From IMG/VR virus record IMGVR_UViG_3300036546_000248: DNA of 64,000 nucleotides; one strand, written 5' to 3'. How positions within the stretch are numbered: the first letter of the stretch is position 1; each line of letters starts with the position of its first letter. The notes under the pieces are model-generated. The model saw only the letters and a program-made list of their open reading frames with translations. It searched no databases and was not told the origin of the DNA. Source of the stretch: a virus (lineage: Duplodnaviria; Caudoviricetes). Shown piece by piece: positions 2,626-53,528 of the stretch. The translations under genes and the position numbers were made by a program.

Positions 2626-2759
2626 AAACAGGTACTCCTTAGTACTGGTTGCCAGAGGATATTATACACTTATAAAAGCTTTCAATCCCGTGGTCGCATG
2701 GAGGGACGTGGGTTGGTGTGCCTGCTGCCGGACAGGCCGACAGCAGGACTCGTGGGGTG

Positions 2760-3521
2760 TTACATGTTGTAATCGTCGTCGCTGCCCCAGTCGTTACCAC
2801 TACTTGCCGGTGCGCCGCCGTTACCGCCGTTGCGATTACCACCGCCGTTGTAGCCACCGCCGTTGCCGCCACCATTACGGTTGCCGCCACCGTTGTAGCC
2901 ACCACCAGAACCACCGTCTTTGTTCTTCGGTTCCGGAGCCACGTACTCAGCAACAGCCACACCGCCGGTCAGGTTGTTGATGGTACGACGCCAGCCACGA
3001 GCGAAGAAGTTCGACGCTTCAGCTTTCGAGAGCGGTTGACCATCCGGACCCATGATCGCATGGTAGTTGGTGCCCAGGAAATCGAACTTCAGGTACGGAC
3101 GATCCTTGGCGACCAGCGCAATGAACATCACGCCTTCTTTGTCGCGACCCAGAATGGTGGTGGACACCACACGAGGTTCTTCAGAACGCTTGCCTTCGAA
3201 GAAGGTATGGTTCTTGTTGACGATCTTGTAAGCCGTGTCGGGACCCGACTTCAGGACCGCATCGAACAGTTCGAGGAATGCCCCGAAAGTCAGATGATCC
3301 ATGGCAGCACGGATGTTGCCATTGTTCTTGTCGTTCGGAACGTTGGTGTAGACGTCCAGGTGGATTTGGTTTTTGACCACGCTAACAGCCAGCGCGCCGG
3401 GGAACTTCGCACCTTGGTCGGTCAGGGTTGGACCCGAAAGGCGAAGTTTGTACTCGTCCAGGGCGTTTTTCTTACGCGGTGCCGGACGGAAATTGTTGTT
3501 GCCAGCCATGATTTTTGTCAC
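2760..3521 (-). CDS. chmC: ChmC-like nucleic-acid-binding protein with G/N-rich tail (phiKZ gp67-like)
   Basis: Folded N-terminal region of about 200 aa, then a GGYNGGGNRNGG low-complexity tail and acidic end DWGSDDDYNM; immediately upstream of the gp68-like gene. Start may be 3509. Confidence 0.62.
   Translation of the reverse strand: MTKIMAGNNNFRPAPRKKNALDEYKLRLSGPTLTDQGAKFPGALAVSVVKNQIHLDVYTNVPNDKNNGNIRAAMDHLTFGAFLELFDAVLKSGPDTAYKIVNKNHTFFEGKRSEEPRVVSTTILGRDKEGVMFIALVAKDRPYLKFDFLGTNYHAIMGPDGQPLSKAEASNFFARGWRRTINNLTGGVAVAEYVAPEPKNKDGGSGGGYNGGGNRNGGGNGGGYNGGGNRNGGNGGAPASSGNDWGSDDDYNM
2815..2915 (-). repeat. Imperfect tandem repeat encoding (GGYNGGGNRNGG)x2
   Basis: Repeated ccgccgttg/ccaccgttg units at the 3' end of the ChmC-like gene. 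Confidence 0.8.
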
Positions 3522-3573
3522 TCCTCGGTTTTACACATTATGGGGCAAAAAGGTAGTTTTTTACCTTTTTGCG

Positions 3574-4428
3574 TTAGAACATCTTCAACAAAATCATTTT
3601 GAATTCAGGGTGAAACGGGTAGCTGTTGATACACTGTTTCATCCGACCCAATGTGGTGGTTGGTGTCCAAAGGTACTTAGACGCCATGTCCACAAACTGA
3701 CGCTTCTCTTTAATAGGGAAGGTTTGAAAGTGAACACCATCACCGAAGAGTTGAAGGGTTACGTGGTTAAAAGGCATCCGGGTCAAATCCAACCCAGCAC
3801 CCCCTGTGAGTTTTGACGACCACTGGGTGTGTGGTTTGATCTTACCGGTGTGAGACTCCAATAGATCCAGTCTTTGGAATTCGTAGCGAGACAGTAGATC
3901 GATTGGCATATGCGTCACAATCAAACTGTCTTGAGGACAACCCTTAAGGGTCAAGTCGCTGTGTTGTAAATCGATCACGCCACTTTTGGTCAATGCCCCT
4001 AGGACAAAATCCTCTTGCGACACCATTGCTTTCTGCAAATCCGTTTTGGGGGTCTTGAGAAAACAATGTTGGTATTTCTTCTCCAACCCTGCGTAGGACT
4101 GAATGTAGAAATACGGGGTACACAAACCTCGCGTGACGGAATCTAGCGACCCCATGATGACCTGAATCTCAGCGGTTAACGCATCAAACAAGTCGTCGTC
4201 CTTTATTGCATCCTTTCGATCGCGCGCTACCGCGCCGATCAGGTTCCGTAGCAGGGTGCGTACGTTGAACCAGATGGCACGATAGTTGTTGATCGGTGGT
4301 TTTGCCTTGTGTTCCGGGTGATCCTCCGACACCCCGAACGCACTCTCCAGTGCTAACGCTGTGGCAATGGAGATCGGGGCGTAATTACCCAGTTCACGTT
4401 CGGCCAGAGGAGAATATCTTCTGGTCAT
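3574..4428 (-). CDS. Conserved chimallivirus protein (phiKZ gp66 position)
   Basis: 284 aa ORF overlapping the SbcD-like gene by 35 nt; synteny only. Confidence 0.6.
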   Translation of the reverse strand: MTRRYSPLAERELGNYAPISIATALALESAFGVSEDHPEHKAKPPINNYRAIWFNVRTLLRNLIGAVARDRKDAIKDDDLFDALTAEIQVIMGSLDSVTRGLCTPYFYIQSYAGLEKKYQHCFLKTPKTDLQKAMVSQEDFVLGALTKSGVIDLQHSDLTLKGCPQDSLIVTHMPIDLLSRYEFQRLDLLESHTGKIKPHTQWSSKLTGGAGLDLTRMPFNHVTLQLFGDGVHFQTFPIKEKRQFVDMASKYLWTPTTTLGRMKQCINSYPFHPEFKMILLKMF

Positions 4429-5533
4429 TTAACAGATTCTCCGCAAGTTGGTGGTAGAGAGGATCGTGAACTTCTTCCTTGAAGCGCGCCATTATCAAAC
4501 CGAAGATGTTGTCGGGGGTAATGGCAGCAGGGGTAAAGGGTGTGATGATGCGGTTAACCGCCTCACGTTTACCTTTCTCTTGGTCCATGACCTTGGTGGT
4601 TAGGAAGTGCTCGGTGTACTTCGTCTTCAGTTCATTCAAACTGAGGATGATGGGGTCCGTCTTATTTGCTAAGATGCGTACATGTGAGCCTGGCGGTAGC
4701 GCCAATACTTGCTGCTCTACCTTATCGGTGGCCAAATCCAGGCTATCGCCACTACAGTCTACCGAGACATACATCTTAGCGTTACGGTTTTCTATAAAGC
4801 GAATTTCATGCCGACCATCGGCTTTGGTTTTAACCCAGAGATGTCCTTTGGCTTCTTCCTCACCGTGACAGAGTCGATCAAAAGAACCTGCTGCCAGAAT
4901 GTTGCCGTTCTGCGAGCGTTTGTGGATGTGTCCCCCGAATACAAAGTACCGGGTGATGTTCTGATAACGGTCACATTGGTGCTTTGGGGCTGGGACGTGT
5001 TCGGGCAGCTGGTGCTCAAAAGCCCCGTGGAGGACAGTGAAGTCCACTTTTTCCAAGCCGTGTTCAGCCAACGCTTTTTGAACATCCAACCACACATCGT
5101 TGGGATCGTGTTTCCACTCATCCGGAACGTACAGGACGTGAATCCCCAATTCGGCAATGTACTCAATCGACAGGGTGTCAACGTATTTAAAGTTGGCCCC
5201 TATCGTGTTGTTGGCGTACACCATGTTCGCACTTTGTTGCCAATCATGCGAAGGTGTTCCGTACAGACACCGAACAATGACATTGCGTCGTTTACACTGA
5301 GCGAGGAAGTCGTTCATCCAACGGTCGATCAACTCCAGATTAGGATCGGAGTAATCCAACAGTCGATCAAACAGGTCCCCTGCAATGATGAACAGATCCA
5401 GTTCACCAAAGGCATCAGTGTCCGGAAACTCCCGACGAAGGTTCTCGATGATGTGGGCTGTTTCGGTGTTGTGGTGACCTAAGTGCACATCACCTATTTC
5501 GGCGATCGTTAGCTCACGCAAGCTCGTAGTCAT
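4394..5533 (-). CDS. sbcD: SbcD/Mre11-like metallophosphoesterase nuclease
   Basis: Motifs GDVHLG, AGDLFD, GTPSHD, LHG, GGHIH, GSFDRLCHGEE. Start placed at the ATG at 5533. Confidence 0.85.
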   Translation of the reverse strand: MTTSLRELTIAEIGDVHLGHHNTETAHIIENLRREFPDTDAFGELDLFIIAGDLFDRLLDYSDPNLELIDRWMNDFLAQCKRRNVIVRCLYGTPSHDWQQSANMVYANNTIGANFKYVDTLSIEYIAELGIHVLYVPDEWKHDPNDVWLDVQKALAEHGLEKVDFTVLHGAFEHQLPEHVPAPKHQCDRYQNITRYFVFGGHIHKRSQNGNILAAGSFDRLCHGEEEAKGHLWVKTKADGRHEIRFIENRNAKMYVSVDCSGDSLDLATDKVEQQVLALPPGSHVRILANKTDPIILSLNELKTKYTEHFLTTKVMDQEKGKREAVNRIITPFTPAAITPDNIFGLIMARFKEEVHDPLYHQLAENLLNDQKIFSSGRT

Positions 5534-8510: not shown

Positions 8511-9900
8511 CTTTGATGTTTCTGCTATGTGAACCAACTTACACAACTGGACTTGTTGTAAACTGATTTAATCTACCTAAAGCCCATGGGGTGTTATAAA
8601 CGAATGCCCACGGACCTACTTGTCGAATGACATCCTTCTTAAGGGTTGTCGTTACAGCTTTCTTACTCAGACCTTGAGTGGTGTGGAACAGACTGGCGCT
8701 CTTAAACACCGAGACTTCGCCCGTCACCACATTCTTGGCCAACACTTCTTTAGGACCTCTACCCAAAGCTCGATCCAAAGACTCTTGGTCGATTTCGGGC
8801 AAACCTTCTTCCTTATACGCACAGACATAACGTTTGTTAACCAAACGCAAGACATCGCCTCTGGACATACATTGGAAGATGTGGCTGGGAAGTGCATCGA
8901 TAGCACGCCCTAAAAGACCCATCGAAGGGTATTCCTGAACTTCGTTGGTCTGGATATCTAAACACAACACTGGTCGTGAAGGCTGTTGACCCAGACTATC
9001 CCTTTCACGGATACGAGCTTTGTGAAGCTGTTCGGGGATTCTATCCTTTGTTCCATGGTGGGTGAGTACCCACCCATCGATAGGGATTCCTTCCTTAATG
9101 TGCTTCCAAATCACCTCAGGTTGATACCCGAAGTGCTCTCCCGCATGGAACAGGTCTCGGAGGAACATACACACACCGTCCTTATCAGCCAAAATCCGCG
9201 GACGTGATTCTGACTTAAAGAGTGCAGCGTGTATATTGTTAACCTTAACCGTTGCCCATTCGAGGTTTTCTACGTCGTTATTGGTACAGTCTCCATCGAT
9301 GTGGTTCACTGTTAACTGACTAACGTCCCTATCCCACGGTAAGTGTGCCAAGGCCACCATCCGATGAACGCCGAACGTTGGCATACTGCCATCCAACATT
9401 CTAACGTTAACCGTGATGTAGCCGTCAAGGTTGACGTAGTAATTCTTCTCAACGCCTTCGGAGTCAAAGATCCTACCGCACCGAGAAGCCATATACCCGT
9501 CAGTGCCCGGTATGATCTTCAAATCCATAACGTATCCTTTTCTTTATTTACACATAGCAGAAACGCACGAGTCGTTAATTCGTGGTTACCTGTGGTCCAG
9601 ACAGATAACTTCCTCACTTTCATGAGGCGGTAGACTATATCTTCTTCCAGTTTCCCAGAAGCTCCCTGTTTCGAATGTCACTTGACACCCTACTCTACTC
9701 GGTTCGTCTCTCGACGCCTTTCGATAGTCGTTGAACCTTGTCCGTAACTTGTCTCCCGACAATTTGTAGGACCTTGGCTGCTGATTGTCCAATCTCGATT
9801 CTTTTCAAACCATGACGTTTATCGTTTCCGATTCCGCTTTGGTGAACCAAGCTCTAAGGAGTTTCCAGCAATTTAAGGAGTTTAATGACGGCAATACTCT
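8511..9900 (-). mobile_element. Group I self-splicing intron (1390 nt) with homing endonuclease
   Basis: P AAUUGCUGGAAA (9862-9874), Q AAUCAGCAG (about 9778-9786), R GUUCAACGACUA (9725-9736), S AAGAUAUAGUCU (9632-9643), P9 CCUCAU-GAAA-GUGAGG. P1 GACGGU/GCCGUC with U-G at the splice site, P10 AGAGUAUU/GAUGCUCU, omega-G at 8511. Confidence 0.92.
8539..9528 (-). CDS. Intron-encoded NUMOD4-HNH homing endonuclease
   Basis: NUMOD4-like N-terminus (IPGTDGYMASRCGRI), HNH core VHRMVA...VNHIDGDCTNNDVENLEW, three C-terminal NUMOD1-like repeats. Confidence 0.88.
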   Translation of the reverse strand: MDLKIIPGTDGYMASRCGRIFDSEGVEKNYYVNLDGYITVNVRMLDGSMPTFGVHRMVALAHLPWDRDVSQLTVNHIDGDCTNNDVENLEWATVKVNNIHAALFKSESRPRILADKDGVCMFLRDLFHAGEHFGYQPEVIWKHIKEGIPIDGWVLTHHGTKDRIPEQLHKARIRERDSLGQQPSRPVLCLDIQTNEVQEYPSMGLLGRAIDALPSHIFQCMSRGDVLRLVNKRYVCAYKEEGLPEIDQESLDRALGRGPKEVLAKNVVTGEVSVFKSASLFHTTQGLSKKAVTTTLKKDVIRQVGPWAFVYNTPWALGRLNQFTTSPVV

Positions 9901-11157
9901 ACCGTCAAAATCAGCATTCATACCCCCTAGTACTAGGACTGATAAGCTCACTGTATTGACGTTGATGTCTTCACTCTTGATGCGGGTGACGTACAGGCGT
10001 TGCGCCGACAAACGGGTCAACGTAGGGTTACGTTGGAAGATTACCGGGATGCCCTTACGAGGCGATTCGGCGATCATTTCCTTGAAGATCTCATCGATCA
10101 GAGGATGGTACCGCAAGGTGTGTTCGAACAACAGCTTGTTGATTTGCTTGGGCGAATACCCACGATGGAGCAGTTTGGCCGTCAGGTGAGTTTTGAACAC
10201 CATGATGGACAGGGACCACGGGAGTTCCAGTTCCTCATGATGGTGTTGGTCTGAACGCGAGGTGATTACAGCCCGGAAGCTGAAATGGTCACGAGAACCA
10301 AACACGTGTTTACGCCACCAACCTGTTTTACTACCCAACTGCGCACCGATGAACGGGGCATAGTACTCAGATAGCATCACGATGGCCGTGACGGTACGTT
10401 TCTCGATTTCCTCTTGGCTCAGTTTGGTTTGACTGTGCACAATGCCGCTGATGGTGTAAATCGCATCAATGGCAGGGCGCATGGTCAGGTCACCGTACAG
10501 GCCTGTAGCTGCCTTCTCGATGATGAACGCCGCTTTCGACGGGATGGGCACCTTATGGCTGAAGATCAGATCGCGGTACAAAGCAATGAAAGTGCGTAGG
10601 TATTCCACCTTACGCTTCTTCTTATTGTCGTACAGCGGCCCTTCCTCCGAGCACATCAGTTGCATGATACTGTCGAAGTTGTGGTAGAAAGAATTCAACC
10701 CCCGCTTATACCCTTGTGCCGAAAGGCTTTGGGTGAAGAACTCCATCTTCTTATTCGGTGGGCGATATCCCGGATTGATCAACCAGTCCAGTAGACTGAC
10801 GCTCTTGATCGTCATCTCGGACTTCAAGATCACGTAGACCCAGGGGTTGATCAGACGTTCTACCCCTTGAGGGGCAGCAATCCACAACAACGCCTCCAGC
10901 GGCCGTTCCGTAGAAGGCAGGCAGAAGTGGTTACAGATTGGACAACGTACGCCAACGTTGTACTGATACTTCAGGTAGCCGCAATCGCATGAAGGTACGA
11001 TATCAAGCGACTCACCAGTGTACTTGGTGATTGCGAGGTTGTGGAGAGCGTCTCGGTCCTCTTTGCTGTCGATTTGATAATCGTTAATGATGAGCGGTAC
11101 GCTGGTCAGTGAATCAAATAGCTGATCGTGGTTCACGATCTCTGCACAGACACCCAT
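9901..11157 (-). CDS. nvRNAP beta' N-terminal subunit (phiKZ gp55-like), exon 1
   Basis: Zn-ribbon CDCG...CPIC, RAVIT, FQRNPTL and MNADFDG at the exon end; spliced product is 476 aa. Confidence 0.9.
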
Positions 11158-11232: not shown

Positions 11233-13230
11233 TTAGCGACCCCAAACACCGCTGAACGCCTGGTTCCCGAAACGGGTACCGTAGTTCGGCTGGATCGCGC
11301 CCGAGGACATCCAGTTACCCAGGTTCGGGTTGACCAGCTGGCCTTGGAAGGTGTAGCCACCGCGAGTTGCACCCTGATTGAACGAATCAACCATGTTGCC
11401 CGGACGTACGGACAGACCGGCTTCTTCGATCGAATCGCTCAGAGCCTTGATGAACTGCTCGGAGAAGGTCACGCGACGCGCGAAGCCCTTGACCACGACG
11501 CTGCCGGAGAGCAGGCGATCGATGATGGTCTTGCGCTCGTGCAGACGCACAGCCAGCGGGATGTTGCGATCGAGGTGAGTACGCTCCCACTTCTCCACCA
11601 GAGTCGGATCGTCCTTGCCAGCCAGGTTCAGGATGGCGAGGTAGTCCAGCTCACGCAGATCACGCAGGTGACCGTCGCTGTTGGTGTAGTAGCCCAGGTG
11701 GATGCGGTCAGCATCGTCGAAGCACACCGGCGCATCGAACGGGAAGTGCTTCTCGAAGCGACCCAGGGTCAGGCGGTTGGCCGCCATCAGGATGCTCTTA
11801 CGCGCGTCTTCGTTCTTGTTCGCCGCAGCGATGAAGGTCTGCTGCAGCCAGCTCAGTTCACCAGCTTCTTCGATGTCCAGCGTGTACAGTAGCTGCTGGT
11901 TGAAGAACATGCTCATCATCTGAGCAAACTGCTGGTCACCGAAGTTGGTGGCCGAAGTGTCGATCTTGTTGCCCGGTTGACCAGGGTTGGCCGGGTCCTT
12001 GATCTCGTAGCCGATGGCGCCGATATCGCGGAGGTTGATGCCCTTGCGAGCGTTGGCACCTTCCGAGTACGCCTTGAGCGGACGACGGAAAGCGTTCCAC
12101 CAGTTGCCACCACGACCCAGCTGTACTGCAGTCGACAGCGCCAGGAGTTGGAGTTCCATGGACACGACATCGGTCAGTGATTCGACGGAGGTCAGTACGA
12201 GGCGAGGCTGGTACATCACACCCGGCATCATCTGCTGCGGCTGCATCATCGGGAACATGCCGAATTGCTGCTGAGCAGGTTGTTGCGGGTTGTACATCAG
12301 ATCGACGTAGCCGGTCACACGGGTCAGTTCACGCGGAGGACGCATGTCCAGACCTTGGGTGTCGGCGTTGTTGCTGGCGCTGACGGTCAGCTCGATGTCT
12401 TCGCGAACCGGCAGGCCCACGATGTTGGTACCATGAACCGAACCGTACTCGGAGCGAGCGGTCAGGATGTCCTTCTCGCCGAACTCGGCCAGGGTGAAGG
12501 GCGGAGCCTCGGCACCCAGCTTCAGATCCAGCACAGCCCAGACGGCCTGAACGCTGTTGTGCAGCCAGTCTTGGAAACGCTCGACCGGAATTTCCTTGTC
12601 GATCTCGGTCGGGATCACGGTGCAACCGGCATCATGCACTTGGGCATTCACGCCGAAGGTGTCGATCACGAACTTCTTCACGGTGTCCCAGTGGGACTTG
12701 TGGTTGTAGATGTCGCTCGGTGCGAAGATCGTTTCGATGGTGTGGCCATCGATGGTGGTGATGTTCGGCTGCAGCGGACGGCCAGAACCTTCGATCATCA
12801 GGTCGTAGACGCCGATGTGGGTTTGACCCTGATGAACTTCCTTCATGCACACGAGGATGCTGGAGTAGTTCACTTGCAGCTGGTTGCTGTCCAGCACCAG
12901 GAAGCGGAAGGCTTCGAGGGTCTTGGTGTCCATGACACGCTTGGCGCGTTCCAGGAGACCGTCGTGGATCTTCTGAACGGTTTCACCGCTCATGTTACGG
13001 CTGACGAGGCCGCGGTGCTGGCTGTTCACGTTCATGATCGAACGGCCGGCCTGGCCCACACGGGCGGAGGTATTGGTGTTCATGGTGGTCCCTCCCGATT
13101 CCGGGATCTGCTGCTGTTGGGGTTGGGGAGCAGGTTGAGCCTGCTGGGTTTCGTTAGCGCCCAGGCCAGCTTGACGCATGGCATCGGCCAGGCTGCCGTT
13201 GGATTTCCCGCTATCGCGATTGACACTCAT
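11233..13230 (-). CDS. chmA: Chimallin, phage nuclear shell protein (phiKZ gp54-like)
   Basis: About 665 aa from MSVNRD with GAAGGA RBS; strong C-ending codon bias; directly upstream of the beta' gene; TATATTAC promoter upstream; aromatic/Gly C-terminal tail. Confidence 0.8.
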   Translation of the reverse strand: MSVNRDSGKSNGSLADAMRQAGLGANETQQAQPAPQPQQQQIPESGGTTMNTNTSARVGQAGRSIMNVNSQHRGLVSRNMSGETVQKIHDGLLERAKRVMDTKTLEAFRFLVLDSNQLQVNYSSILVCMKEVHQGQTHIGVYDLMIEGSGRPLQPNITTIDGHTIETIFAPSDIYNHKSHWDTVKKFVIDTFGVNAQVHDAGCTVIPTEIDKEIPVERFQDWLHNSVQAVWAVLDLKLGAEAPPFTLAEFGEKDILTARSEYGSVHGTNIVGLPVREDIELTVSASNNADTQGLDMRPPRELTRVTGYVDLMYNPQQPAQQQFGMFPMMQPQQMMPGVMYQPRLVLTSVESLTDVVSMELQLLALSTAVQLGRGGNWWNAFRRPLKAYSEGANARKGINLRDIGAIGYEIKDPANPGQPGNKIDTSATNFGDQQFAQMMSMFFNQQLLYTLDIEEAGELSWLQQTFIAAANKNEDARKSILMAANRLTLGRFEKHFPFDAPVCFDDADRIHLGYYTNSDGHLRDLRELDYLAILNLAGKDDPTLVEKWERTHLDRNIPLAVRLHERKTIIDRLLSGSVVVKGFARRVTFSEQFIKALSDSIEEAGLSVRPGNMVDSFNQGATRGGYTFQGQLVNPNLGNWMSSGAIQPNYGTRFGNQAFSGVWGR

Positions 13231-13292
13231 CAGTTTATTTCCTTCAGGTTTGTTTGCGCAAACAACCCACACATCGGTGAGTATTCCAATGG

Positions 13293-13300
13293 GTAATATA
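13293..13300 (-). promoter_or_regulatory. Early (virion RNAP) promoter TATATTAC for chmA
   Basis: Exact match to the phiKZ early consensus, about 60 nt upstream of the 13230 start. Confidence 0.75.
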
Positions 13301-13439
13301 TACCCGATTTCTTTTCGAATACGATTCAGGTGACCGATAGCGATCATGCATCCTAAATCCCTTGGCGGAAAACCCACCAAGTTGTATTCGTCTATACCAT
13401 AGGTGAGAATGTAATTAAATATCTAATCCACATTCTTCC

Positions 13440-30953: not shown

Positions 30954-31001
30954 ACACCCTCCTTAGGGCTATAGACTGGGGTCCGAAGACCCCGACGGTT
31001 T

Positions 31002-36501: not shown

Positions 36502-37326
36502 TTAAACGCGCGGAGTGACGACCCCGGTCTGGAACATATATTTGCCTTCGCGGTCGGCGTAGGACGTTATGCAGTCTTGGTCGCTCTCGAAGAACAAGAA
36601 CTGTGCAATACCCTCATTAGCGTAGATCTTCATCGGTAGGTTAGTGGCATTAGAAATTTCAATGACCACATTACCTTCGAACTCAGCTTCGATCGGCGTC
36701 ACGTTGACGATAGCACCGGCACGCGCCAGGGTTGATTTACCAACAGCGATAACCGTAACGTTACGCGGAATGCGGAAGTATTCCACAGTACGGCCCAAAA
36801 GGTACGAGTTCGGAGGTAGGATCACGTACTCGTCGCCGGTTTCATCAGTGTGGACCACCGCATCTACCAAACACTGGGTGTCAAAGCGCTTAGGGTCGAT
36901 GATCGCTGAGTTGAGGTTGGTAAAGAGTTTGAACTCGGTAGACAACCGCACATCGTAGCCGTAGCTGGAAGTACCGAAAGAAATCAGCCGTTCCCCTTTG
37001 CGATAAAGACCACCGTCCTTTTCCACTACCTCGTCTTCCAACAATCCATTATAGTGATCGAACTTATCAGACTCAGACAACGGACTGTCTTCACGGTAAC
37101 GCACTTGGACACCTACGAAGGGTTCGATCATCGGCTTCCAGTCGATCTTGGCAAGATCCTCAGGACGCAAACGAGTTGCGATGTAACGCTGTTCTTTACT
37201 TTCGAGTTCTTTGGGGGTATGGGTGATACCTTCCCACGCCAGTGTAGTGTCACGACCATGAACGGTGTGAAGGGCATGGCTGGGAGGAGTAGATTGAGTA
37301 GCAATCCATTTGTCGGATTTGATCAT
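36502..37326 (-). CDS. dcd: dCTP deaminase with two N-terminal insertions
   Basis: [67 protein letters not shown]. Confidence 0.9.
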
Positions 37327-41853: not shown

Positions 41854-42168
41854 TTAAGCTGGAACGCCCAGAAACGCCAGACGATCTTCAATCAGATTCA
41901 GGCGCATTTCCAGAGCGACGATATTATCGCCGCTCAGTTGGGCATGTAGACCGTGATCGAAATATTCATCGATCACCGATTGGATCATTGCGACTTCATG
42001 ACGAAGCTCAGCAGCCTGTTGTTTACGGCTTTCCAAACGCTGTGTGCGTTCAGCAGCCGCCATTGCTTTAACCTCAACCGGATCTACTTTTTCGATGGTG
42101 CGATGGATCTGCTTCATCTGGCGATCAAACAGCTTATCCAGGGCAGCTTCAAAGCTCATGGTGTTCAT
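41854..42168 (-). CDS. Small early coiled-coil protein
   Basis: 104 aa; AGGAG RBS and TATATTAC promoter. Confidence 0.7.
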   Translation of the reverse strand: MNTMSFEAALDKLFDRQMKQIHRTIEKVDPVEVKAMAAAERTQRLESRKQQAAELRHEVAMIQSVIDEYFDHGLHAQLSGDNIVALEMRLNLIEDRLAFLGVPA

Positions 42169-42226
42169 GATGGTTCTCCTAAGAACTCAAGGGTTAGATA
42201 CAGGTTGTTGTATCCTATTCCTTTAA

Positions 42227-42234
42227 GTAATATA
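42227..42234 (-). promoter_or_regulatory. Early promoter TATATTAC
   Basis: Exact consensus with an upstream A-tract. Confidence 0.8.
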
Positions 42235-43991: not shown

Positions 43992-46556
43992 CTAATCGTC
44001 AGAAATGGAAACAAAGTGGTTGACGTTGACCTTATCCTCGAGATAATACTTGATAGCCCGTTTCAAGAACGTCAGCTTGTAGATACTCAACTCAAAGACC
44101 GAGTTGTACGTGTGGGGATGAACCACCACGTAACGGTCGTCCACAGCCTTACGAGTGGGTTCGAAGTCCAACAACCATTCGTAGCTTTTGAGCAGACTGC
44201 GCATGAACGGGATGTCATATCGACCAATCATCCGATTGTCCCACAACACCCCACGGTCCAAATCGGATATCAACCGAGCCACAAACGGACTGTAAACTCG
44301 GTAACGGTCTGGGATAGGTGTGATGCCGGGTAGTTTAGGTTCACGACGTTTCCCGTTGACATACGTCTCCACAATCACATCCACCGCTTGCGATTGTTCT
44401 CGCAAAACGTAGGTGTCTGTGGGTGTGTACACACCTAACGGGTTAACGATTTCATCCACCTGATAAGGACGCCCATTTTGCAGCAGCTTGGTGGCATCAA
44501 CGTTTGGATAGTCCTCAACGAAAGCGACCTCCGAACGGTGTTTGGCACACCCACCCACCACGATCCGCACGTTCTTGTCATCGCGCAGGTTGATGGTTTG
44601 GTTCATACTGAGCAAACCGTACTCCACAAACCCAACGTCCGGCTGAGCTTCCGGCGTCATGTCGTCTTGACAGAACCCTTCGGCCATCACCACCACATCT
44701 TGAGTCCCGTCGACCAAATACTCTTTGTTAGTCAACACCACTTTGGGCCAACTTACAAAATAGTCGAGGTTCTCAATCAGACCGTACCCGTTCAACCACA
44801 CACTTACCCGCCGTGGTGGCAGCGTCAGGTCACCGTCGGTATAACCATTCCCCGAACGTTCTTCTTTGCTGCGCAGAGTCAGGTGGTAGATACCAGCATC
44901 CATCGCCAATTGTTGACGATATAGCAGGAAAGCTTCGTCAGACTTCACCAGTCCTTGCCAGTTGACCGCATTGAGGGTCCAAGCCAGTTGACCGTTTTGG
45001 AAACTGAAATCCACTCCTTCTTTCGCAGGAACCCAATTACCAGTTACCACACCCGCCACTTTAGGCGACTTATAGAACCGATAATTGTGTCGCGTGTCTA
45101 GGGTTCTCGCCGTCAAGCCATGGATAGCGCTTACTTGTCGACTACCAATCCCACGGTGGGCTTCAATCATCCGAGTCCTACGTTCGATGGGGTTGTAGTA
45201 CTCACCCCCGTTGTGAACATGAAAACCCAGCAGCTTACCCTGTGCATCAAACTCCAGCATTGTGGAGGGGTCATAGAAGCCGACAGGTAGCTTGACGAAA
45301 CGAGTCCCGGCCATCAAGTCCACCTTTTGCGGTGTCGGCACCACTAACTGCGTGATGGCGTTATAACCGTAGGCCTTCTCCACCATGGCGTTGGTGATTT
45401 GACCGTCCTGCGCCCGCATCATTGCCGTATACCACGACTGCTCCAGATGGTCAGCCCGCCAGTTAGGTACTGTCGATTCCAACCCCAACATCGCCTCTTG
45501 GATCTGTTGGTCGGTGAGCTTATACAGCTCATGAAGACGGTTGTGTTCAAACACCAACGGGCGCTTGTAACCAGACTCTCGAATAAACAGGTGCAGTTCC
45601 AAGTCGTTGATGTCGGACCACTCAGGGTGGTCATTGACATAACCCTGAACATAGGTCACAGGAATCGAGTACGTGTTGTGCGTTACCATCCGCACCGCGT
45701 CTTCTTTGTTACGGTGATAGAACACACCTGAGAAACGCCCATTGACCCCCGGTTTTACCAGATAGATGTCAATGTCGTCGCGGTAATCAATCCACGCATC
45801 AGCGTTAGCTTTGTCGCGGTAAATCAAAAACTTACGCTTCTGATCCAGTACGCTGTCAAAGGTTGGAAGATCCTTGACCTTCAACACCACTCGCCGCCGC
45901 ATTGAGGCATCATAAAAGAATTCCGCCTCATCACCCAACCCCATTCGCCCAGGCTGTACATCATCGACGTAACGACCGTTGTGAAAGGTTAGGGTTTGTC
46001 CGACTTTGGCTTTGAAGCTATTGCGCAGGTTTTGGAACGACACCAGATCTTGCGTGCTACCCCAGTGGGTATAACCCGTACAGGTCAGGGTTTCAGACTG
46101 TCCATCCGAACGCCGCGAACTGTAGTACGCATTCGAGTAGAAGCGCACAAACAAAGGTTTCACGTAACGACCGCTCAACACATCCACTTGCCGCAGTGCG
46201 ATCACCACATTGCGATCACCCATCACCATCACGTAGGCCAGCTTCCGAGGGAACTGAAAACCGTCTTTGTGATACAGGTTGATGGTCACCCCTTCGTTCT
46301 TTGCCAGCTGGTCCACCGATTGCCAAACCTTTTGTTTAGCACCAATCCCCAAATGACGGGGATGAACCTGACCAACAGAGAACACGTGATAGATGTCACC
46401 ACTGGTGGGGAGTGGAATAGTTTGCCATTCCACCGCACACACCTTAGAAACCCCGAGGTCTCGAGTGATGCGTGCGACTTGGAAGACGTGTTGATAGTCC
46501 TGATCTGGAGTGCACCAAACGTTTTTGGTTCCGTGCAGCGCCAGAAAATTAGACAT
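43992..46556 (-). CDS. Virion structural protein (phiKZ gp27-like)
   Basis: 854 aa; synteny. Confidence 0.7.
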   Translation of the reverse strand: MSNFLALHGTKNVWCTPDQDYQHVFQVARITRDLGVSKVCAVEWQTIPLPTSGDIYHVFSVGQVHPRHLGIGAKQKVWQSVDQLAKNEGVTINLYHKDGFQFPRKLAYVMVMGDRNVVIALRQVDVLSGRYVKPLFVRFYSNAYYSSRRSDGQSETLTCTGYTHWGSTQDLVSFQNLRNSFKAKVGQTLTFHNGRYVDDVQPGRMGLGDEAEFFYDASMRRRVVLKVKDLPTFDSVLDQKRKFLIYRDKANADAWIDYRDDIDIYLVKPGVNGRFSGVFYHRNKEDAVRMVTHNTYSIPVTYVQGYVNDHPEWSDINDLELHLFIRESGYKRPLVFEHNRLHELYKLTDQQIQEAMLGLESTVPNWRADHLEQSWYTAMMRAQDGQITNAMVEKAYGYNAITQLVVPTPQKVDLMAGTRFVKLPVGFYDPSTMLEFDAQGKLLGFHVHNGGEYYNPIERRTRMIEAHRGIGSRQVSAIHGLTARTLDTRHNYRFYKSPKVAGVVTGNWVPAKEGVDFSFQNGQLAWTLNAVNWQGLVKSDEAFLLYRQQLAMDAGIYHLTLRSKEERSGNGYTDGDLTLPPRRVSVWLNGYGLIENLDYFVSWPKVVLTNKEYLVDGTQDVVVMAEGFCQDDMTPEAQPDVGFVEYGLLSMNQTINLRDDKNVRIVVGGCAKHRSEVAFVEDYPNVDATKLLQNGRPYQVDEIVNPLGVYTPTDTYVLREQSQAVDVIVETYVNGKRREPKLPGITPIPDRYRVYSPFVARLISDLDRGVLWDNRMIGRYDIPFMRSLLKSYEWLLDFEPTRKAVDDRYVVVHPHTYNSVFELSIYKLTFLKRAIKYYLEDKVNVNHFVSISDD

Positions 46557-47449
46557 TAGAGCACCTCGAGCATGCGTGCCAAGTTGATGGTGAATTGCTT
46601 ACCGGCACCGTTGCGATCATTGATCTGAACAACGTTGGCGATCGGTGCCTTACGGAAGCTCCGATCAATCAGGGCCGTATAGATGATGGCGTACCACGTC
46701 GGAATGTGTTCCAGCGCCACAGCCACCACTTCCCGTGCGTTGAAACCAAACCATCCACCACCCAACATGGCGTATAGCAGCGCCACATCAAGTTGTTCCA
46801 GACGACGGTTGGGAATCACTTCTTTGACCACCGCAACGAAATCAGTCACCCCATCCATATAACGAATAGGACCGATGTTGTCGAAGATCCACTGGGCGTT
46901 GAGCTTGGTGCAGCGCGCCACACGGGGGACCATACGCTGAAGATCGCTTTCCGTCAGTTCTGTCAGCTCCCGCATACCACAGAGGTGCCAGAAGGAGGCT
47001 ACCATCGCCAGCTTCATTTGCTCTTCGGGGTTGAGATTCAGACGACGAGTGATGTTCTCGGAAACGTAACGGGCAAAGGTGGTCAGTGCCAAATCACCCA
47101 AATTGCCGATGTCTTCCATGCTGTGACGATGGGCATACAACGTCAAGGCTGCACGCGTCACATTGAATTGAAACTCGGTGTGGTTGGCCACTTTATAAGT
47201 GGAGCCATCTTCACGGATGAGTGCGCGGGCATCGATAACGACAACCGTTTGCCCGGCATGTTCGATCAATACTGGATGGGTAAACGGTTTGATCTCGCGA
47301 TTGCGTGGCGAGACCAAGTAGATACCGTTGAGCGACGTGCCTTCAAGGCTGTAGAGAGTACCCTCCACAAACGCCAAACGAAGGTGTTTGAGCGTGTCGG
47401 CCATGTTATACGACGCGCAGGGCTTGGTATCGTATGGAGAGACTTTCAT
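46556..47449 (-). CDS. Virion structural protein (phiKZ gp28-like)
   Basis: 297 aa, divergent from the sheath gene. Confidence 0.68.
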   Translation of the reverse strand: MKVSPYDTKPCASYNMADTLKHLRLAFVEGTLYSLEGTSLNGIYLVSPRNREIKPFTHPVLIEHAGQTVVVIDARALIREDGSTYKVANHTEFQFNVTRAALTLYAHRHSMEDIGNLGDLALTTFARYVSENITRRLNLNPEEQMKLAMVASFWHLCGMRELTELTESDLQRMVPRVARCTKLNAQWIFDNIGPIRYMDGVTDFVAVVKEVIPNRRLEQLDVALLYAMLGGGWFGFNAREVVAVALEHIPTWYAIIYTALIDRSFRKAPIANVVQINDRNGAGKQFTINLARMLEVL

Positions 47450-47661
47450 CTATTCAATCTCCTGGTTTACTGGGACGTAAAAGTTTACTAAACTTAGGTA
47501 TGTAGTTCGTCGCTGGAATAGTATGATGTACTACATCAGTGTACGGCAACTATACCATTCAAGTTATTTCTCCTCCGATAAGACCATGGCTTGGACGAAG
47601 AGTAGATTTGTTTGGTCCTTTAATCGCGATTAATGATCAACGTTTGATCACGGGAGCTGTT

Positions 47662-49719
47662 ATGATCACAATCAAAAACGCTGCCCCTCGCGCCATCCTG
47701 AACGGTATCAAGGATGAGTCTGGTCGCGCTCCGGTCTACCAACCGGAAGCACGTCCCACTCACATGCCGCATGTGTTTCTGTTTGCACAGCGCGGTCCTC
47801 TGGTTCCTCAGGTTGTCGTGGGTGACAGTCTTGTCTCCACCTACGGCGCGGAGTCTTTCGACTACCGCTCCAAGTACGCTACTCACCAGACGGTGCTGAT
47901 CAACACCGTTAACGGTCGCGGCAACATGATGGTTGCTCAGCGTGTAGTAGCCGAAGACGCAGCCATCGCTGCACTGGTTCTGTGGGCTGACTACGTGGCC
48001 GATGACGTTCCGGACTTCCAGCGTACTGAAAACGGCCGCTTCCTCCTGGACGCCGAGGGCAAGCGCATTCCGACCGGCCAAACCGTTCCGGGTATCCGCG
48101 TTCGCTACGAGATCAGCGGTCTGGAAGCAGAACAGGATCTGCACACCCTGGAGCCTCGCGTAGGTACCCTGGTGGCTGAATCCGACGGTACTCAATCGAC
48201 CATGGTTCCGCTGCACGCTTGGCGTGTCTCGTCCCACGGTTCGTTCGGTGACCTCGTCGGTATCCGTCTGTCGTCCCCGACCATCGACTCTTCGTCGCCG
48301 GTTAACGACGAACTGATCGAAACGGCTCGTGCCTACATGTACCGCCTCGCGATGGTTGAGCGCCCCTCGATCAACAGCCTGCCGGTTGTGAAGGAAACCC
48401 TGTATGGTGACCAGTTCATCGACTTCACCTACAAGCCGGGCGTGATCAACGCCAAAACCGATACCGAAGTGTCGGTTGATGACATCCTGCTCCAGAGCTG
48501 GAACCAAGAGGCCTCCAACGGTCTGCCACCGACCATCGGTCTGATCAACGATCAGCACGTCTACTTCGACAACATCGAAGCCCTGCTGACCAAGATCCAG
48601 GAAAACGAAAGCCTGCACGGCCTGGTCTCCGAGTCCGAAGACGACCTGCACATGGTCAACTTCATCGGCGGTCACGACTACAACGGTACGCCGTACTACA
48701 GTCTGGTCATCGAAGGGCCTTCGGCGGGTGGTATCCTGCTGAACGAGAACTCGACCCATTATGCCCGTGGCGGTGCTGACGGCACGATGGATTTCGAAAC
48801 CTTCGATCGTCTGGTCGGCGACATCTGCGCCAACTACGGTGAAGGTGAATACCACTTCCTCGACAGCGCGGTCTACCCGCAGTCGATCATCTGGGATTCG
48901 GGCTTCAGCCTGGAAACCAAGAAGAAGTTGCTCACCGTTCTCGGCCGTCGTAAAGACATCGCTGTGATCCTGTCCACCCAGGACGTGTCGCAGCCGCAGA
49001 ACAGCAACTCGGAAGAATCCTCGATCGCCGTTTCGCTGCGTACGGCTGCCCGCATGTTCCCGGAATCGGAAGTCTACGGTACCTCCGTTTGCCGCGCCAT
49101 GGTTGTCGGTCATTCCGGTTATCTGGTCAACTCCAAGTGGAAGCAGCTGACGCCGCTGACCATCGAGCTGGCGGATAAGTGTGCGGCTTACATGGGTGCC
49201 GGCGACGGCGTCTGGAAGTCCCGCGCCAAGTTCGACATCTCTCCGGCCAACCAAGTCACCATGTTCCGCGGTGTGAACTCGACCTATAAAAAGGCCAACG
49301 TTCGCTCCAACGATTGGGACGCAGGTCTGGTCTGGGTACAGAACTTCGACCGCCGCAGCCAGTTCTTCCCTGGTCTGCAAACCGTGTACGACGACGACAC
49401 CAGCATCCTGAACTCCATGTTCAACATGCTGATCGCCGTTGAACTCGAGAAGGTTGCTGAAATCACCTGGCGTCAGCTGACTGGTATTTCCGGTCTCACT
49501 GAAAACCAGTTCATCACCCGTTCGAACCGTCTGATCGAAGAAGCCGTCAAAGGTCGCTTCGATAACCGCGTTGTGATCGTCCCGGATACCTTCGTATCCG
49601 AAGCCGACCAGCAGCGTGGCTTCAGCTGGGGTTGCAACATCGTGATGTACGGCAACAACATGAAAACCGTGGGCTCGTTCACCATCGTAGCCCGCCGTCG
49701 TGAGGACCTCGAACAATGA
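47662..49719 (+). CDS. Contractile tail sheath protein (phiKZ gp29-like)
   Basis: 685 aa from MITIKNAAP with GGAG RBS; HMPHVFLFAQRGP; high-expression codon bias; followed by the tube gene. Confidence 0.82.
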   Translation: MITIKNAAPRAILNGIKDESGRAPVYQPEARPTHMPHVFLFAQRGPLVPQVVVGDSLVSTYGAESFDYRSKYATHQTVLINTVNGRGNMMVAQRVVAEDAAIAALVLWADYVADDVPDFQRTENGRFLLDAEGKRIPTGQTVPGIRVRYEISGLEAEQDLHTLEPRVGTLVAESDGTQSTMVPLHAWRVSSHGSFGDLVGIRLSSPTIDSSSPVNDELIETARAYMYRLAMVERPSINSLPVVKETLYGDQFIDFTYKPGVINAKTDTEVSVDDILLQSWNQEASNGLPPTIGLINDQHVYFDNIEALLTKIQENESLHGLVSESEDDLHMVNFIGGHDYNGTPYYSLVIEGPSAGGILLNENSTHYARGGADGTMDFETFDRLVGDICANYGEGEYHFLDSAVYPQSIIWDSGFSLETKKKLLTVLGRRKDIAVILSTQDVSQPQNSNSEESSIAVSLRTAARMFPESEVYGTSVCRAMVVGHSGYLVNSKWKQLTPLTIELADKCAAYMGAGDGVWKSRAKFDISPANQVTMFRGVNSTYKKANVRSNDWDAGLVWVQNFDRRSQFFPGLQTVYDDDTSILNSMFNMLIAVELEKVAEITWRQLTGISGLTENQFITRSNRLIEEAVKGRFDNRVVIVPDTFVSEADQQRGFSWGCNIVMYGNNMKTVGSFTIVARRREDLEQ

Positions 49720-50585
49720 GCCGCCTAGCAGATACGCTCCTTGACAACAAGGGGTTCAACCAGTACGGTCAGGCGCCTGCCGTAGACATCCGTAAGGGTG
49801 GTCAAATGGGCCATGCTCCGGTATTCGACTCCTACGTGTCGAACGCTTCGTACATCCGCCGCAACCTGATCGCGATCCTCATCGAGGCACCGCGTGGGTT
49901 CCAGGACCTCGAAGACCCGGAGTACTGGGTAGCTACGCTGAAGAACCTGGTCGAGCTGGCTCCGCTGACCATCGAAGGGCTGAATCAAACCCTCTCGGTG
50001 GAACACAGCGAGAACCCGTTCGGTGGTGCTGGTGAGATGCAACAAGACATCACCAACGTCACTCGTCAGCGTTCGACGCCGTCGTTCACTTGGAACGAGA
50101 AGTACGGTCGCTCGGTCGCCAACTTCCTGAACGGTTGGACTCTCAACCTGATCATGGACCCGGAAACCAAGTACCCGCGTGTGGTCAAGCTCGCCAGCCG
50201 TCCGGTTGACCTGCTGCCCGACTACACCGGCATGACCGTACTGTTCATCGAACCCGATCCGACCCACTCCAAAGTGGTAACGTCGTGGCTCTCGACGAAC
50301 ATGCGTCCGAACGGCACCGTGGCTGAAATCCAAGGTCGTCGTGAACTGACCGCCGCCGGTGACAAGACCGACTACACGGTTGAGTTCACTGCGCTGACTC
50401 AGGTCGGTGAAGGTGTGGACCTGCTGGCTCAGGAATTCCTGGACCGCATGACCCTCACTGGCGCCAACCAGAACCTGCGTCAAGCCTTCATCACCGAAAT
50501 CGACGCCGACGTCGAGGCCGCTGGTGCAGACGGCAACGGTTACAGCGAGCAGATGGAAGAGATCGCAGCTGCGGCTGTCCTCTAA
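49716..50585 (+). CDS. Tail tube protein (phiKZ gp30-like)
   Basis: 289 aa, ATGA-coupled to the sheath; high-expression codon bias. Confidence 0.78.
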   Translation: MSRLADTLLDNKGFNQYGQAPAVDIRKGGQMGHAPVFDSYVSNASYIRRNLIAILIEAPRGFQDLEDPEYWVATLKNLVELAPLTIEGLNQTLSVEHSENPFGGAGEMQQDITNVTRQRSTPSFTWNEKYGRSVANFLNGWTLNLIMDPETKYPRVVKLASRPVDLLPDYTGMTVLFIEPDPTHSKVVTSWLSTNMRPNGTVAEIQGRRELTAAGDKTDYTVEFTALTQVGEGVDLLAQEFLDRMTLTGANQNLRQAFITEIDADVEAAGADGNGYSEQMEEIAAAAVL

Positions 50586-52114: not shown

Positions 52115-52332
52115 ACGAAGCGAAAGACAACAGTCTTTTCCTCACGGCGATCTACTTCGTACAGCTCTACGTGAACACCCAAATCCGACACAGCGACTGT
52201 AAGGATCACAGCAACCGAGACTTTCAAGGCGATGGTGCGAGCCACCACTTTATCCAAGCCGGCTTTGATAAGCTCTTTGTAGTTTTCGATTATACGCATT
52301 TGTTTCAAAGTTAACATTTTTTCCATTTTCAT
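52108..52332 (-). CDS. Small hypothetical protein
   Basis: 74 aa with AGGA RBS. Confidence 0.55.
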   Translation of the reverse strand: MKMEKMLTLKQMRIIENYKELIKAGLDKVVARTIALKVSVAVILTVAVSDLGVHVELYEVDRREEKTVVFRFVA

Positions 52333-52397
52333 TTTCTTTTTCCTATTTAAGGTTAAATTGGGCGTAGACGTCTAAGACGCCTACGCCACTGTTTTCG

Positions 52398-52775
52398 TTA
52401 TGCCGCTTTAGCAGCAGAGTCTTTAACGGGGATGATCTCGAGGAATTTCCCCAGCCGACCTTCGTCGTCATTGTAGCGCTGGCAGCGCTCATCCATACTC
52501 AGACTGACGAACTCCACAGTACCCCCTACCGAATTGCGGCTAAGGGTGATCTCGTCATCGGTGATGTCGATGTGGTTGATGCAGAACAGCACCCCGTCAA
52601 GCAGGGCAACCAGAACCGGGTTCTTTGCCTGCGGTCCCTGTTGAAAAACACCCACATGGGTGATCTGAATCTTGCCATTAGGACGATGCTCATCCCCGAT
52701 CAAGCCATTGCAGGCTTTGATCTTAGCGATGGCGGCTTCATGATGACGCTTGATGTTTTCGCTGGTGTAGGACAT
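52398..52775 (-). CDS. Small early hypothetical protein
   Basis: 125 aa from MSYTSEN with AGGAGAAC leader. Confidence 0.7.
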   Translation of the reverse strand: MSYTSENIKRHHEAAIAKIKACNGLIGDEHRPNGKIQITHVGVFQQGPQAKNPVLVALLDGVLFCINHIDITDDEITLSRNSVGGTVEFVSLSMDERCQRYNDDEGRLGKFLEIIPVKDSAAKAA

Positions 52776-52837
52776 TGTTTGTTCTCCTAAGAACTTGAGG
52801 TTAGTGGGTAGGTGCTTCTGCACCTACCTAAGGGGTC

Positions 52838-53194
52838 TTACTTCAGGAAGAACTCTTTCAGTTCATCCATTGGCAATACAAGGACCAGGTTCTGCAGCTC
52901 GTCGACCGAGTTAATCTCGATCTCACCGAGCGACCAGTTGCCTTTGTGGTGGGTCAGGGTGATGCCCTTGGCGGTCAGCTTGAAGACGGTGGTGCCCGAG
53001 GTTTTGAATTCACCTTGGGCCTTGGAGTAGGCAACGTCTTTGAAATCCCAAACCAACTGAATTTCTTCAACCTTGAATTCACCCTCACCTTTGACGGCGA
53101 AGGCGAAGTTTTTCAGTTTGATACTGCCATTACCACTGCCTTTGTAGTCAGCGACGATTTTGGCTACGATGTTCATTGCGATTTGCTTGTTCAT
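52838..53194 (-). CDS. Small early Lys-rich protein
   Basis: 118 aa with AAGGAGAAC leader. Confidence 0.7.
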   Translation of the reverse strand: MNKQIAMNIVAKIVADYKGSGNGSIKLKNFAFAVKGEGEFKVEEIQLVWDFKDVAYSKAQGEFKTSGTTVFKLTAKGITLTHHKGNWSLGEIEINSVDELQNLVLVLPMDELKEFFLK

Positions 53195-53221
53195 GGTTGT
53201 TCTCCTTAGAACTGGGGTTGG

Positions 53222-53470
53222 TTAGAAGCCGAGGGTTTGTTTAGCGTTGCGTTCTGTCACTTTGTCACCTACCCAGACTTTAGCAGTGGTCTGGATGAAG
53301 TAACCATTCTCATCAATGCTGGTCTGAGTCATGTCACAAAAGCCTTCGGAGCAATTGCTCAGAGGCGACTTGTAGGTCAGGTCTTTGGTAACGTTGTAGG
53401 TGGCGACTAGAGAGATCAGAGTACCGATCACAGCGATGATGGAGATAGCGCGGATGATGTTGAAAGTCAT
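53222..53470 (-). CDS. Small early membrane-anchored or exported protein
   Basis: N-terminal hydrophobic helix, CSEGFC pair. Confidence 0.7.
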   Translation of the reverse strand: MTFNIIRAISIIAVIGTLISLVATYNVTKDLTYKSPLSNCSEGFCDMTQTSIDENGYFIQTTAKVWVGDKVTERNAKQTLGF

Positions 53471-53528
53471 GGTTAGTTCTCCTTAGAACTGATGGGTAGA
53501 TACAGTTTATTGTATCCTATTCACCTGA

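Follow-up and report, generated by a model that had tools for sequence, protein, structure and literature searches.

A covarying RNA hairpin carries the Shine–Dalgarno site of early genes in a clade of chimalliviruses

The IMG/VR virus record IMGVR_UViG_3300036546_000248 holds, in a stretch of 64,000 nucleotides that we refer to as the window, nine genes whose Shine–Dalgarno (SD) sites are built into short hairpins. They represent an RNA element of this chimallivirus clade, situated in the translation initiation regions of its early mRNAs. An earlier note on this DNA, made from the letters alone, had listed the nine; all are present where it placed them, on the minus (coding) strand, and read in mRNA sense as it had written them (Table 1). 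Each consists of 5–6 base pairs enclosing a four-nucleotide NAGG loop, and the loop together with the first two bases of the 3′ arm forms the strong SD AGGAG. GG(A) is thereby displayed and the final G of the SD is held in a C–G pair. Eight of the nine have 5–6 perfect Watson–Crick pairs, and the ninth has four plus an outer G·U; in the variant at 30668–30683 the 3′ arm begins with AA instead of AG. At every site the start codon follows GGAG by 6–9 nucleotides (nt) and the 3′ end of the hairpin by 2–5 nt. A tenth copy, AGACU-AAGG-AGUCU, lies outside the window at contig position 4954. The consensus is (G/A)(U/A)UCU-NAGG-AGA(A/U)(C/U), with many other stems besides. The earlier note knew of no description of the element, and our literature searches likewise returned no publication on an SD hairpin of this kind. 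Rfam gave no match over 52300–53600 at E ≤ 1, and its sole hit in the window was a group I intron elsewhere.

The window comes from a viral contig of 84.5 kb (G000). It encodes chimallin (11233–13380, PF25677, E 6e-59), a divergent family B DNA polymerase, a piece of RNA polymerase and a terminase whose closest named relatives are those of Xanthomonas, Erwinia and Burkholderia jumbo phages (42–52% identity); on the strength of these genes, we assign it to a nucleus-forming jumbo phage (chimallivirus), of which it is a fragment. A megablast search of the window against named phages gave no match, and a search through bacterial assemblies found no host. Relatives in IMG/VR comprise G001 (221 kb, with an identical terminase and mosaic elsewhere), G002 and G003 (about 223 kb each, with terminal repeats and 94–95% terminase identity), G004 (128 kb) and the distant G005 (195 kb, terminase 53%). 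We analyzed the whole sequences of G001, G002, G003 and G005 and later those of G006 (239 kb) and G007 (233 kb), two more contigs with a chimallin gene. Genes were called with a simple purpose-made caller, and 'early' denotes a class assigned from a promoter motif rather than from expression data.

The hairpins occur far above chance. In a comparison with dinucleotide shuffles, a type of control that the earlier note had proposed, the 14-mer GTTCTNAGGAGAAC occurred four times against 0.00 in 100 shuffles. Across both strands of the contig, 11 of 2,449 NAGG sites are flanked by at least five Watson–Crick pairs, where about 2.4 are expected; nine of these 11 lie on an SD, and the two within genes (the polymerase gene and another) are at chance level. 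Stems at NAGGAG gene starts have a bimodal length distribution (0–1 or 5–6 bp, with none between). A stem of at least 5 bp is found at 8 of 30 strong-SD starts in G000, against 0.7 to about 1 under a flank-swap null, and at 15/72, 14/68 and 16/81 such starts in G001, G002 and G003, respectively, each against a null of about 1; G005 has none at 63.

The NAGG loop, the U–A closing pair and the next C–G pair amount to the SD (U)NAGGAG and its complement, and because these positions are fixed by the SD, only the three outer pairs provide a fair test of pairing. The fixed loop and closing pair that the earlier note had singled out are indeed constant, but as a separate signal they fall away, being merely the SD and its complement. 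Among 64 unique CU-NAGG-AG starts in four related genomes, the three outer pairs are all Watson–Crick in 50, where 1/64 (about one start) is expected; the five starts with a single mismatch have G·U in three cases and U·U in two, never A·C. We also assembled 82 unique CUNAGGAG starts from six genomes, picked regardless of their outer pairs. Each of the three free pairs shows all four Watson–Crick types in this set, and the covariation score is 0.431; shuffling lowers it to 0.136 (0/500), and sliding the 3′ partner gives no more than 0.155. These values bear out the earlier claim of compensatory stem changes in a shared RNA-level element. RNAalifold, applied to 19 whole leaders, predicts the SD hairpin as the sole consensus helix.

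Orthologous sites show the same behavior: AUCCU/AGGAU is replaced by UUCCU/AGGAA and GAUUCU/AGAAUC by AGUUCU/AGAACU, and at the 30956–30969 site a relative (L004) carries GCCCU-UAGG-AGGGC, with G–C in place of G·U. The first loop base varies freely between orthologs, as at the 26733–26746 site, which in G001 has the loop AAGG on an unchanged stem. Every copy is sense-oriented and in a single register with the SD and ATG, and none is orphan. Because the element has one orientation, a fixed register, stems that vary but stay paired and a tolerance of wobble without antisense equivalents, the constraint acts on the transcript and not on the DNA.

The hairpin belongs to a larger unit. The copies at 53475–53490, 42173–42186 and 31459–31472 each end a leader of about 60 nt that starts at an A/T-rich stretch and TATATTAC. 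Its order is a conserved start, N3-GUGAAUAG, a 5′ hairpin of 7–8 bp, a linker, the SD hairpin, 2–5 A/C-rich bases and the ATG, which lies 64–76 nt past the promoter motif. The 5′ hairpin covaries too (GGAUACA/UGUAUCC versus GAAUACA/UGUAUUC in relatives). Linkers upstream of SD hairpins are 37% C and 11% G, and a CCC tract precedes the stem by 4–6 nt in 60–80% of all copies. The TATATTAC motif also stands ahead of gp5, gp6, gp10.1 and gp54 in the phiKZ record, and matches to the promoter half of the cassette occur in chimalliviruses of Erwinia, Pseudomonas, Serratia, Salmonella and Vibrio. Chimallivirus early promoters are described as conserved AT-rich motifs that lie about 10 bp before the start site (PMC11512511). 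Judged by these matches, TATATTAC is the chimallivirus early (virion RNA polymerase) promoter. The position of the hairpin as the last module of this cassette, the C-rich tract before the stem and the identity of loop and closing pair with the SD are features that the earlier note did not contain.

Placement relative to these promoters separates hairpin genes from the rest. In G001–G003, 38–46% of hairpin genes are the first gene after an early promoter, and 77–88% lie within 2 kb downstream of one, compared with 12–13% of other genes, in agreement with the earlier statement that the hairpins sit mostly on early genes, as defined by the promoter motif. Copies that are not promoter-proximal occupy internal cistrons of the same operons, each with a C-tract of its own. 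NAGGAG SDs of equal strength but without a hairpin occur at about 55 further genes per genome, and the chimallin gene has an early promoter and no hairpin. The gene behind 2632–2645, which the earlier note had labeled gp68-like, does show homology to PHIKZ068, a non-virion RNA polymerase subunit, and a 754-residue core gene carries the hairpin as well; most of the remaining products are small ORFans without a Pfam or PHROG family.

The geometry of the element is narrow and its stability marginal. Among 1,225 unique gene starts, we found 99 hairpins with a 4-nt loop (64 of them NAGG), compared with 14–38 for each other loop size. The 6-nt class consists mostly of the same hairpins with the closing pair opened, and rare variants with larger loops (UAUGGA, UUUGGA, GAUUUGGA) end in GGA with the next G paired. 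Isolated hairpins are weak (−0.6 to −4.1 kcal/mol), with pair probabilities of 0.07–0.99 in 70-nt contexts. We computed opening energies in silico for 47 hairpin sites in 100-nt contexts, where individual predictions are noisy. The median cost of opening AGG is 0.20 kcal/mol in native sequences, 2.37 kcal/mol when the three outer bases of the 5′ arm are complemented and 1.96 kcal/mol at other strong-SD starts; for the whole AGGAG the corresponding medians are 4.25, 3.45 and 3.34 kcal/mol. Because the AGG opening energy is low in native hairpin contexts, the SD is not hidden by the hairpin in these models, which predict that the GG core is kept free and the AG tied down.

Three other roles for the region around the loop were considered. 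A pseudoknot or switch pairing the C-tract with the loop GG was rejected, the loop being too small and the predicted alternatives heterogeneous. Translational coupling through an upstream stop codon in the loop was likewise rejected, upstream genes ending about 40 nt earlier. In 40 long intergenic regions of G002, a search for CUCCU-type motifs that could mark an anti-SD small RNA gave scattered hits, none convincing.

Outside the immediate clade the element is sporadic. G006, another chimallivirus (51% GC), has the hairpin at 9 of 70 strong-SD starts (null 0.46), with more diverse stems (CCUCU, GAUCU, GCUCU, ACCCU, GUCCU, GUGCU and AAGCU), and G007, with a phiKZ-like chimallin, has it at 3 of 58 (null 0.22). 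We found none at strong-SD starts of G005, in the first 50 kb of phiKZ, which include seven early promoters, or in 40 kb sampled from Erwinia phage RAY, and in unrelated viral contigs 0 of 296 strong-SD starts have a stem over 3 bp. Across IMG/VR, the 14-mer GTTCTTAGGAGAAC occurs in at least 119 stretches and a stem-broken control, TTGCTTAGGAGAAC, in 90; the shares at gene starts are similar (36/96 versus 23/73). A general viral enrichment of the hairpin 14-mer was therefore rejected, most single hits being chance. Because start association of the exact 14-mer across IMG/VR does not exceed that of its control, the element is lineage-restricted within chimalliviruses, and it is evolutionarily labile. 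In G006 and G007, orthologs of the gp68-like and 754-residue genes are without the hairpin; the G006 homolog of the 125-residue gene carries GUUCU-AUGG-AGAAC. As a separate observation, four consecutive genes at 46294–49904 of G006 (L084) each have an SD hairpin with a different stem (GUUCU, GUCCU, UGUUCU and ACCCU).

Within the clade, the hairpin moves with its leader. The 82-residue gene (53222–53470) is promoter-proximal with the full cassette in G000; in G001–G003 it is internal with an ordinary SD. Metatranscriptome contigs of relatives begin to differ precisely at the cassette (loose ends at 53507 and 53538), where the same promoter is joined to an AAUCU-class leader and a different gene. 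These breakpoints show that cassettes mark mosaic junctions. In three metatranscriptome runs the relatives are present as contigs, with even, low depth over early and late genes, and one run searched as raw reads gave no reads.

Our preferred reading, to which we give a little less than an even chance, is that the hairpin is an operator, a class label of early mRNAs read by a trans-acting factor; with a host factor counted in, an operator of some kind becomes slightly more probable than not. The factor would bind the GGA exposed on a short helix and set the timing of early protein synthesis, occluding or cutting the SD once early products are no longer needed. Possible factors include a repressor encoded by the phage, an endonuclease directed at GGAG in the manner of T4 RegB and a CsrA-type protein of the host. 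We favor the operator because of the restriction to early operons, with some 55 equal SDs per genome left without a hairpin, the invariant register across different stems and the marginal stability. The stems are too weak to mask the SD alone, as expected for a protein-stabilized operator. Class-wide operators in translation initiation regions are known in phages (T4 RegB and RegA; PMC3014915), and CsrA offers a precedent for AAGGA hairpin loops over SDs (PMC4894983). What we observe is the hairpin together with its covariation, RNA-level character, fixed register and restriction to early operons; from these we infer a factor that would bind or cut it. The more specific version, in which a dedicated, unannotated phage protein (a repressor specific to the hairpin or a GGAG endonuclease that resembles RegB but belongs to a new family) reads the tag and gives an early-to-middle switch, we consider less likely than not.

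Several results weigh against an operator. Neither of two candidate readers was found in G000–G003: RegB (PF10715) had no match at E ≤ 1, although fold-level relatives were not searched, and CsrA (PF02599) had no homolog. A phylogenetic profile retained 63 G002 proteins with a homolog in G006 but none in G005, ten of them also in G007; by Pfam these ten are thymidylate synthase, DUF1353 or nothing, with no RNA-binding or nuclease domain, and this small profile is uninformative, as G006 is just the nearer relative. Orthologs of core genes in other lineages (the gp68-like and 754-residue genes in G006 and G007) do not retain the hairpin, which comes and goes with the leader cassette. A second GGA, preferred by CsrA dimers, is not enriched, and the SD by itself accounts for the sole invariant bases, those of the loop and closing pairs. 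The trans-acting binder or nuclease that the earlier note had envisaged thus has no candidate among the RegB and CsrA families or in the small profile. Its more specific suggestion of a ChmC-type binder fits poorly with published enhanced crosslinking and immunoprecipitation data for PhiPA3 ChmC, which show peaks near start codons but neither a sequence motif nor much specificity among phage mRNAs (PMC11077065).

A purely cis-acting module for SD display or insulation, a serious contender that we hold somewhat less probable than the operator, fits the data almost as well, and the two readings remain close. Here the weak hairpin would keep the AGG nucleation core single-stranded, the 30S subunit would melt the stem and no trans factor would be needed; initiation would become independent of whichever ORFan had recombined behind the portable leader, and early mRNAs would need such display, having to capture ribosomes while host mRNA is still abundant. 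The ease of opening AGG relative to arm-complemented and other strong-SD sites, at about equal cost for the whole AGGAG, agrees with this, within the noise of folding 100-nt windows. The leaders are G-poor and C-rich, and SD guanines are therefore their main mispairing targets. Marginal stems, the travel of the hairpin with its cassette, as seen for the 82-residue gene, the fast-evolving ORFans that mostly follow it and the failure to find a factor all point the same way. Display alone, however, would tolerate loops of 5–8 nt exposing the whole SD, whereas the register is nearly always NAGG plus a paired AG, even with unrelated stems; the hairpin is also a net cost relative to an open SD because a 4-nt loop must melt before it can pair with the anti-SD, and display leaves unexplained why equally strong middle and late SDs never have a hairpin.

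Host CsrA or RsmA sites, used or tolerated by the phage on early mRNAs, would be a special case of the operator, and an improbable one. CsrA binds GGA, typically AAGGA or ANGGA, in SD-overlapping hairpin loops (PMC4894983), about half of the loops here read AAGGA, and the hairpins are short, like Rsm targets. The ANGGA core, however, is not what is conserved: the A next to GG is invariant and the preceding base is free (A 24, U 16, C 6 and G 1 of 47). Moreover, the A of GGA sits in the weak closing U–A pair with GG in the loop, a second GGA (−60 to −9 or +10 to +50) occurs at a fraction of 0.57 of hairpin sites and 0.58 of other strong-SD starts, the 296 strong-SD starts of unrelated viral contigs lack such hairpins and no bacterial assembly matched as host. 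A DNA-level or a non-functional reading is more improbable still. A 5-N4-5 inverted repeat for a dimeric DNA-binding protein, or a recombination site merely overlapping the SD, would account for the palindromic dominant form GTTCT-N4-AGAAC and for cassette borders at recombination junctions. We nevertheless judge it highly improbable, given one orientation relative to the gene, a fixed SD/ATG register without orphans, imperfect copies with G·U or U·U but never A·C, stems that vary yet pair where a DNA-binding protein would read sequence and over half of the copies lying inside operons, distant from promoters. Least probable of all is that duplicated leaders still resemble each other without function; GTTCT/AGAAC does dominate and promoter-proximal leaders are clearly paralogous, but at least 14 different stems are all still complementary, the 14-mer persists between diverging flanks, other lineages have the element with unrelated stems and the covariation disfavors this reading.

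Table 1. Positions of the SD hairpins and early-cassette features in the window
Feature	Position	Strand	Sequence	Context
SD hairpin	2632–2645	−	GUACU-AAGG-AGUAC	Before 520-residue phiKZ gp68 homolog (gene 1063–2625); kept in G001–G003
SD hairpin	26733–26746	−	AUUCU-UAGG-AGAAU	Before 199-residue protein (phrog_3921, weak HD-like; gene 26129–26728)
Variant SD hairpin, 6 bp	30668–30683	−	ACUUUU-AAGG-AAAAGU	SD AAGGA; before 168-residue ORFan (gene 30158–30664)
SD hairpin, 4 Watson–Crick pairs plus outer G·U	30956–30969	−	GCCCU-AAGG-AGGGU	Before 85-residue ORFan (gene 30693–30950)
SD hairpin	31459–31472	−	AAUCU-CAGG-AGAUU	First gene after early promoter (gene 31002–31454, 150 residues)
SD hairpin	42173–42186	−	GUUCU-UAGG-AGAAC	First gene after early promoter (gene 41854–42168, 104 residues)
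SD hairpin	52781–52794	−	GUUCU-UAGG-AGAAC	Third cistron of early operon (gene 52398–52775, 125 residues)
SD hairpin	53199–53212	−	GUUCU-AAGG-AGAAC	Second cistron of early operon (gene 52838–53194, 118 residues)
SD hairpin, 6 bp	53475–53490	−	AGUUCU-AAGG-AGAACU	First cistron of early operon (gene 53222–53470, 82 residues); pair probabilities 0.9–0.99
Early-type promoter core	53529–53536	−	TATATTAC	A/T-rich stretch upstream; ATG 67 nt downstream
Early-type promoter core	42227–42234	−	TATATTAC	
Early-type promoter core	31514–31521	−	CATATTAC	
5′ leader hairpin of early cassette	53498–53517	−	GGAUACA / UGUAUCU	
5′ leader hairpin of early cassette	42196–42215	−		
5′ leader hairpin of early cassette	31486–31506	−	AAUAAG / CUUAUU	
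Linker	53491–53497	−	ACCCAUC	C-rich, G-poor; joins the two hairpins

Further observations concern the leaders themselves. In AAUCU-class leaders, the 3′ arm and spacer (AGAUUCACC) are complementary to the conserved leader start GGUGAAU (L030:17609–17669, L007:19856–19916, L027:11047–11106 and window 31452–31513), and the predicted 7-bp long-range helix, which competes with the SD hairpin, may act as a switch. The C-tract of the linker is a homopolymer that ranges from C4 to C11 between orthologous leaders (L010:4606–4670, L026:13697–13758 and the L023:1764–1783 region) and may be prone to slippage. About 25 nt upstream of the gp68-homolog hairpin, within 2646–2680 on the minus strand, stands a perfect extended −10-like box, UGUAUAAUAU, conserved in G000–G003. 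It is a look-alike of host-type promoters in a phage believed not to employ the host RNA polymerase. A second recurrent leader motif, (C)UAACC(U/C)UUAA(AC) / UAAACU, lies 10–30 nt ahead of about 35 of 231 starts in G002, related 6-mers being enriched 5–10 fold, and may be a middle/late promoter or leader signal. Examples precede the G002 genes at 48405, 52300, 85833, 166232 and 170054 (L006–L017) and, in the window, 36502–37326, 53611–54135 and 55630–56109. Early leaders of phiKZ also hold UUAACCUU. The intron that Rfam detected (RF00028, 79.8 bits, full model) occupies 9611–9910 on the minus strand, between open reading frames 8539–9528 and 9805–11157; the latter matches RNA polymerase Rpb1 domain 2, and the intron probably splits an RNA polymerase subunit gene.

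To our knowledge, little is known of how nucleus-forming jumbo phages time or prioritize translation. Their mRNAs are made behind a barrier, first a vesicle and then the nucleus, and compete for host ribosomes. A covarying hairpin on early ribosome-binding sites is a concrete, mutable handle on translation timing, it defines an early regulon from sequence alone and it could serve as bait for its partner, if one exists. The compact, portable leader, with its promoter, 5′ stabilizer hairpin and structured ribosome-binding site, could also be used in phage engineering. Should a dedicated phage protein read the hairpin, nucleus-forming phages would have a post-transcriptional early-to-middle switch.

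Among known systems, T4 RegB shares the idea of a class-wide signal: it acts on GGAG SDs of early mRNAs and inactivates them after the early period, and for cleavage without S1 it requires an unpaired GGA and a constrained fourth G (Uzan and Miller 2010, PMC3014915). The geometry here is the same, with GGAG in all copies 6–9 nt before the start in early operons, and the dominant 3′ arm GGAGAAC with its A-rich spacer resembles the RegB consensus GGAGRAYARAA. Only the GUUCU/AGAAC class fits that consensus, and in part (GGAGAACAAAC), whereas the arms AGUAC, AGGGA, AGUCU and AGAUU do not (GGAGUAC, GGAGGGA, GGAGUCU); natural RegB sites, moreover, are not hairpins and depend on ribosomal protein S1, whereas the sites here are hairpins in genomes (G000–G003) lacking a PF10715 homolog. 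Targets of CsrA, RsmA and RsmE, such as the Campylobacter jejuni flaA leader, show GGA over the SD in a short hairpin, sometimes the second of two stem-loops, and the flaA hairpin is supported by compensatory changes (PMC4894983). Our element is likewise a short hairpin at the SD with compensatory changes, its GG in the loop and the following A in the weak closing pair, but its register and conserved A are shifted by one base, a second GGA is not enriched and the phage has no CsrA gene. The PeSL (promoter-early stem-loop) cassettes of T4-type phages are small regulatory repeats that mediate modular shuffling and lie beside non-essential ORFans (Arbiol et al. 2010, PMC2839356), and cassette borders here coincide with mosaic junctions; PeSL stem-loops, in contrast, are terminators paired with σ70-like promoters, whereas here a virion RNA polymerase-type promoter precedes hairpins that lack U-tracts and lie inside the leader, the second containing the SD.

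The closest published phenomenon is that of the start-associated sequences (SAS) of Cluster K mycobacteriophages (Pope et al. 2011, PMC3203893). SAS are 13-bp asymmetric repeats with AGGAG and symmetric outer parts (GGG...CCC), located 3–7 bp before the start codons of 11–19 genes per genome; they occur in one orientation and only in the non-structural half, are absent from the host and have no known function, and a host- or phage-encoded RNA or protein partner was proposed for them (PMC3203893). The hairpins described here match this pattern, with 13–16 copies per genome of about 222 kb, all sense, 2–5 nt before the start and in early operons. SAS differ in having a constant GGGATAGGAGCCC, which is not found here, a 3-bp symmetric part around a 7-nt center and no reported covariation, whereas our stems are of 5–6 bp, variable in sequence and covarying, around a 4-nt loop. 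The phages and host phyla are unrelated and the sequences dissimilar. As a second, unrelated example beside SAS, the element suggests by analogy that structured, class-specific ribosome sites are a recurrent phage strategy.

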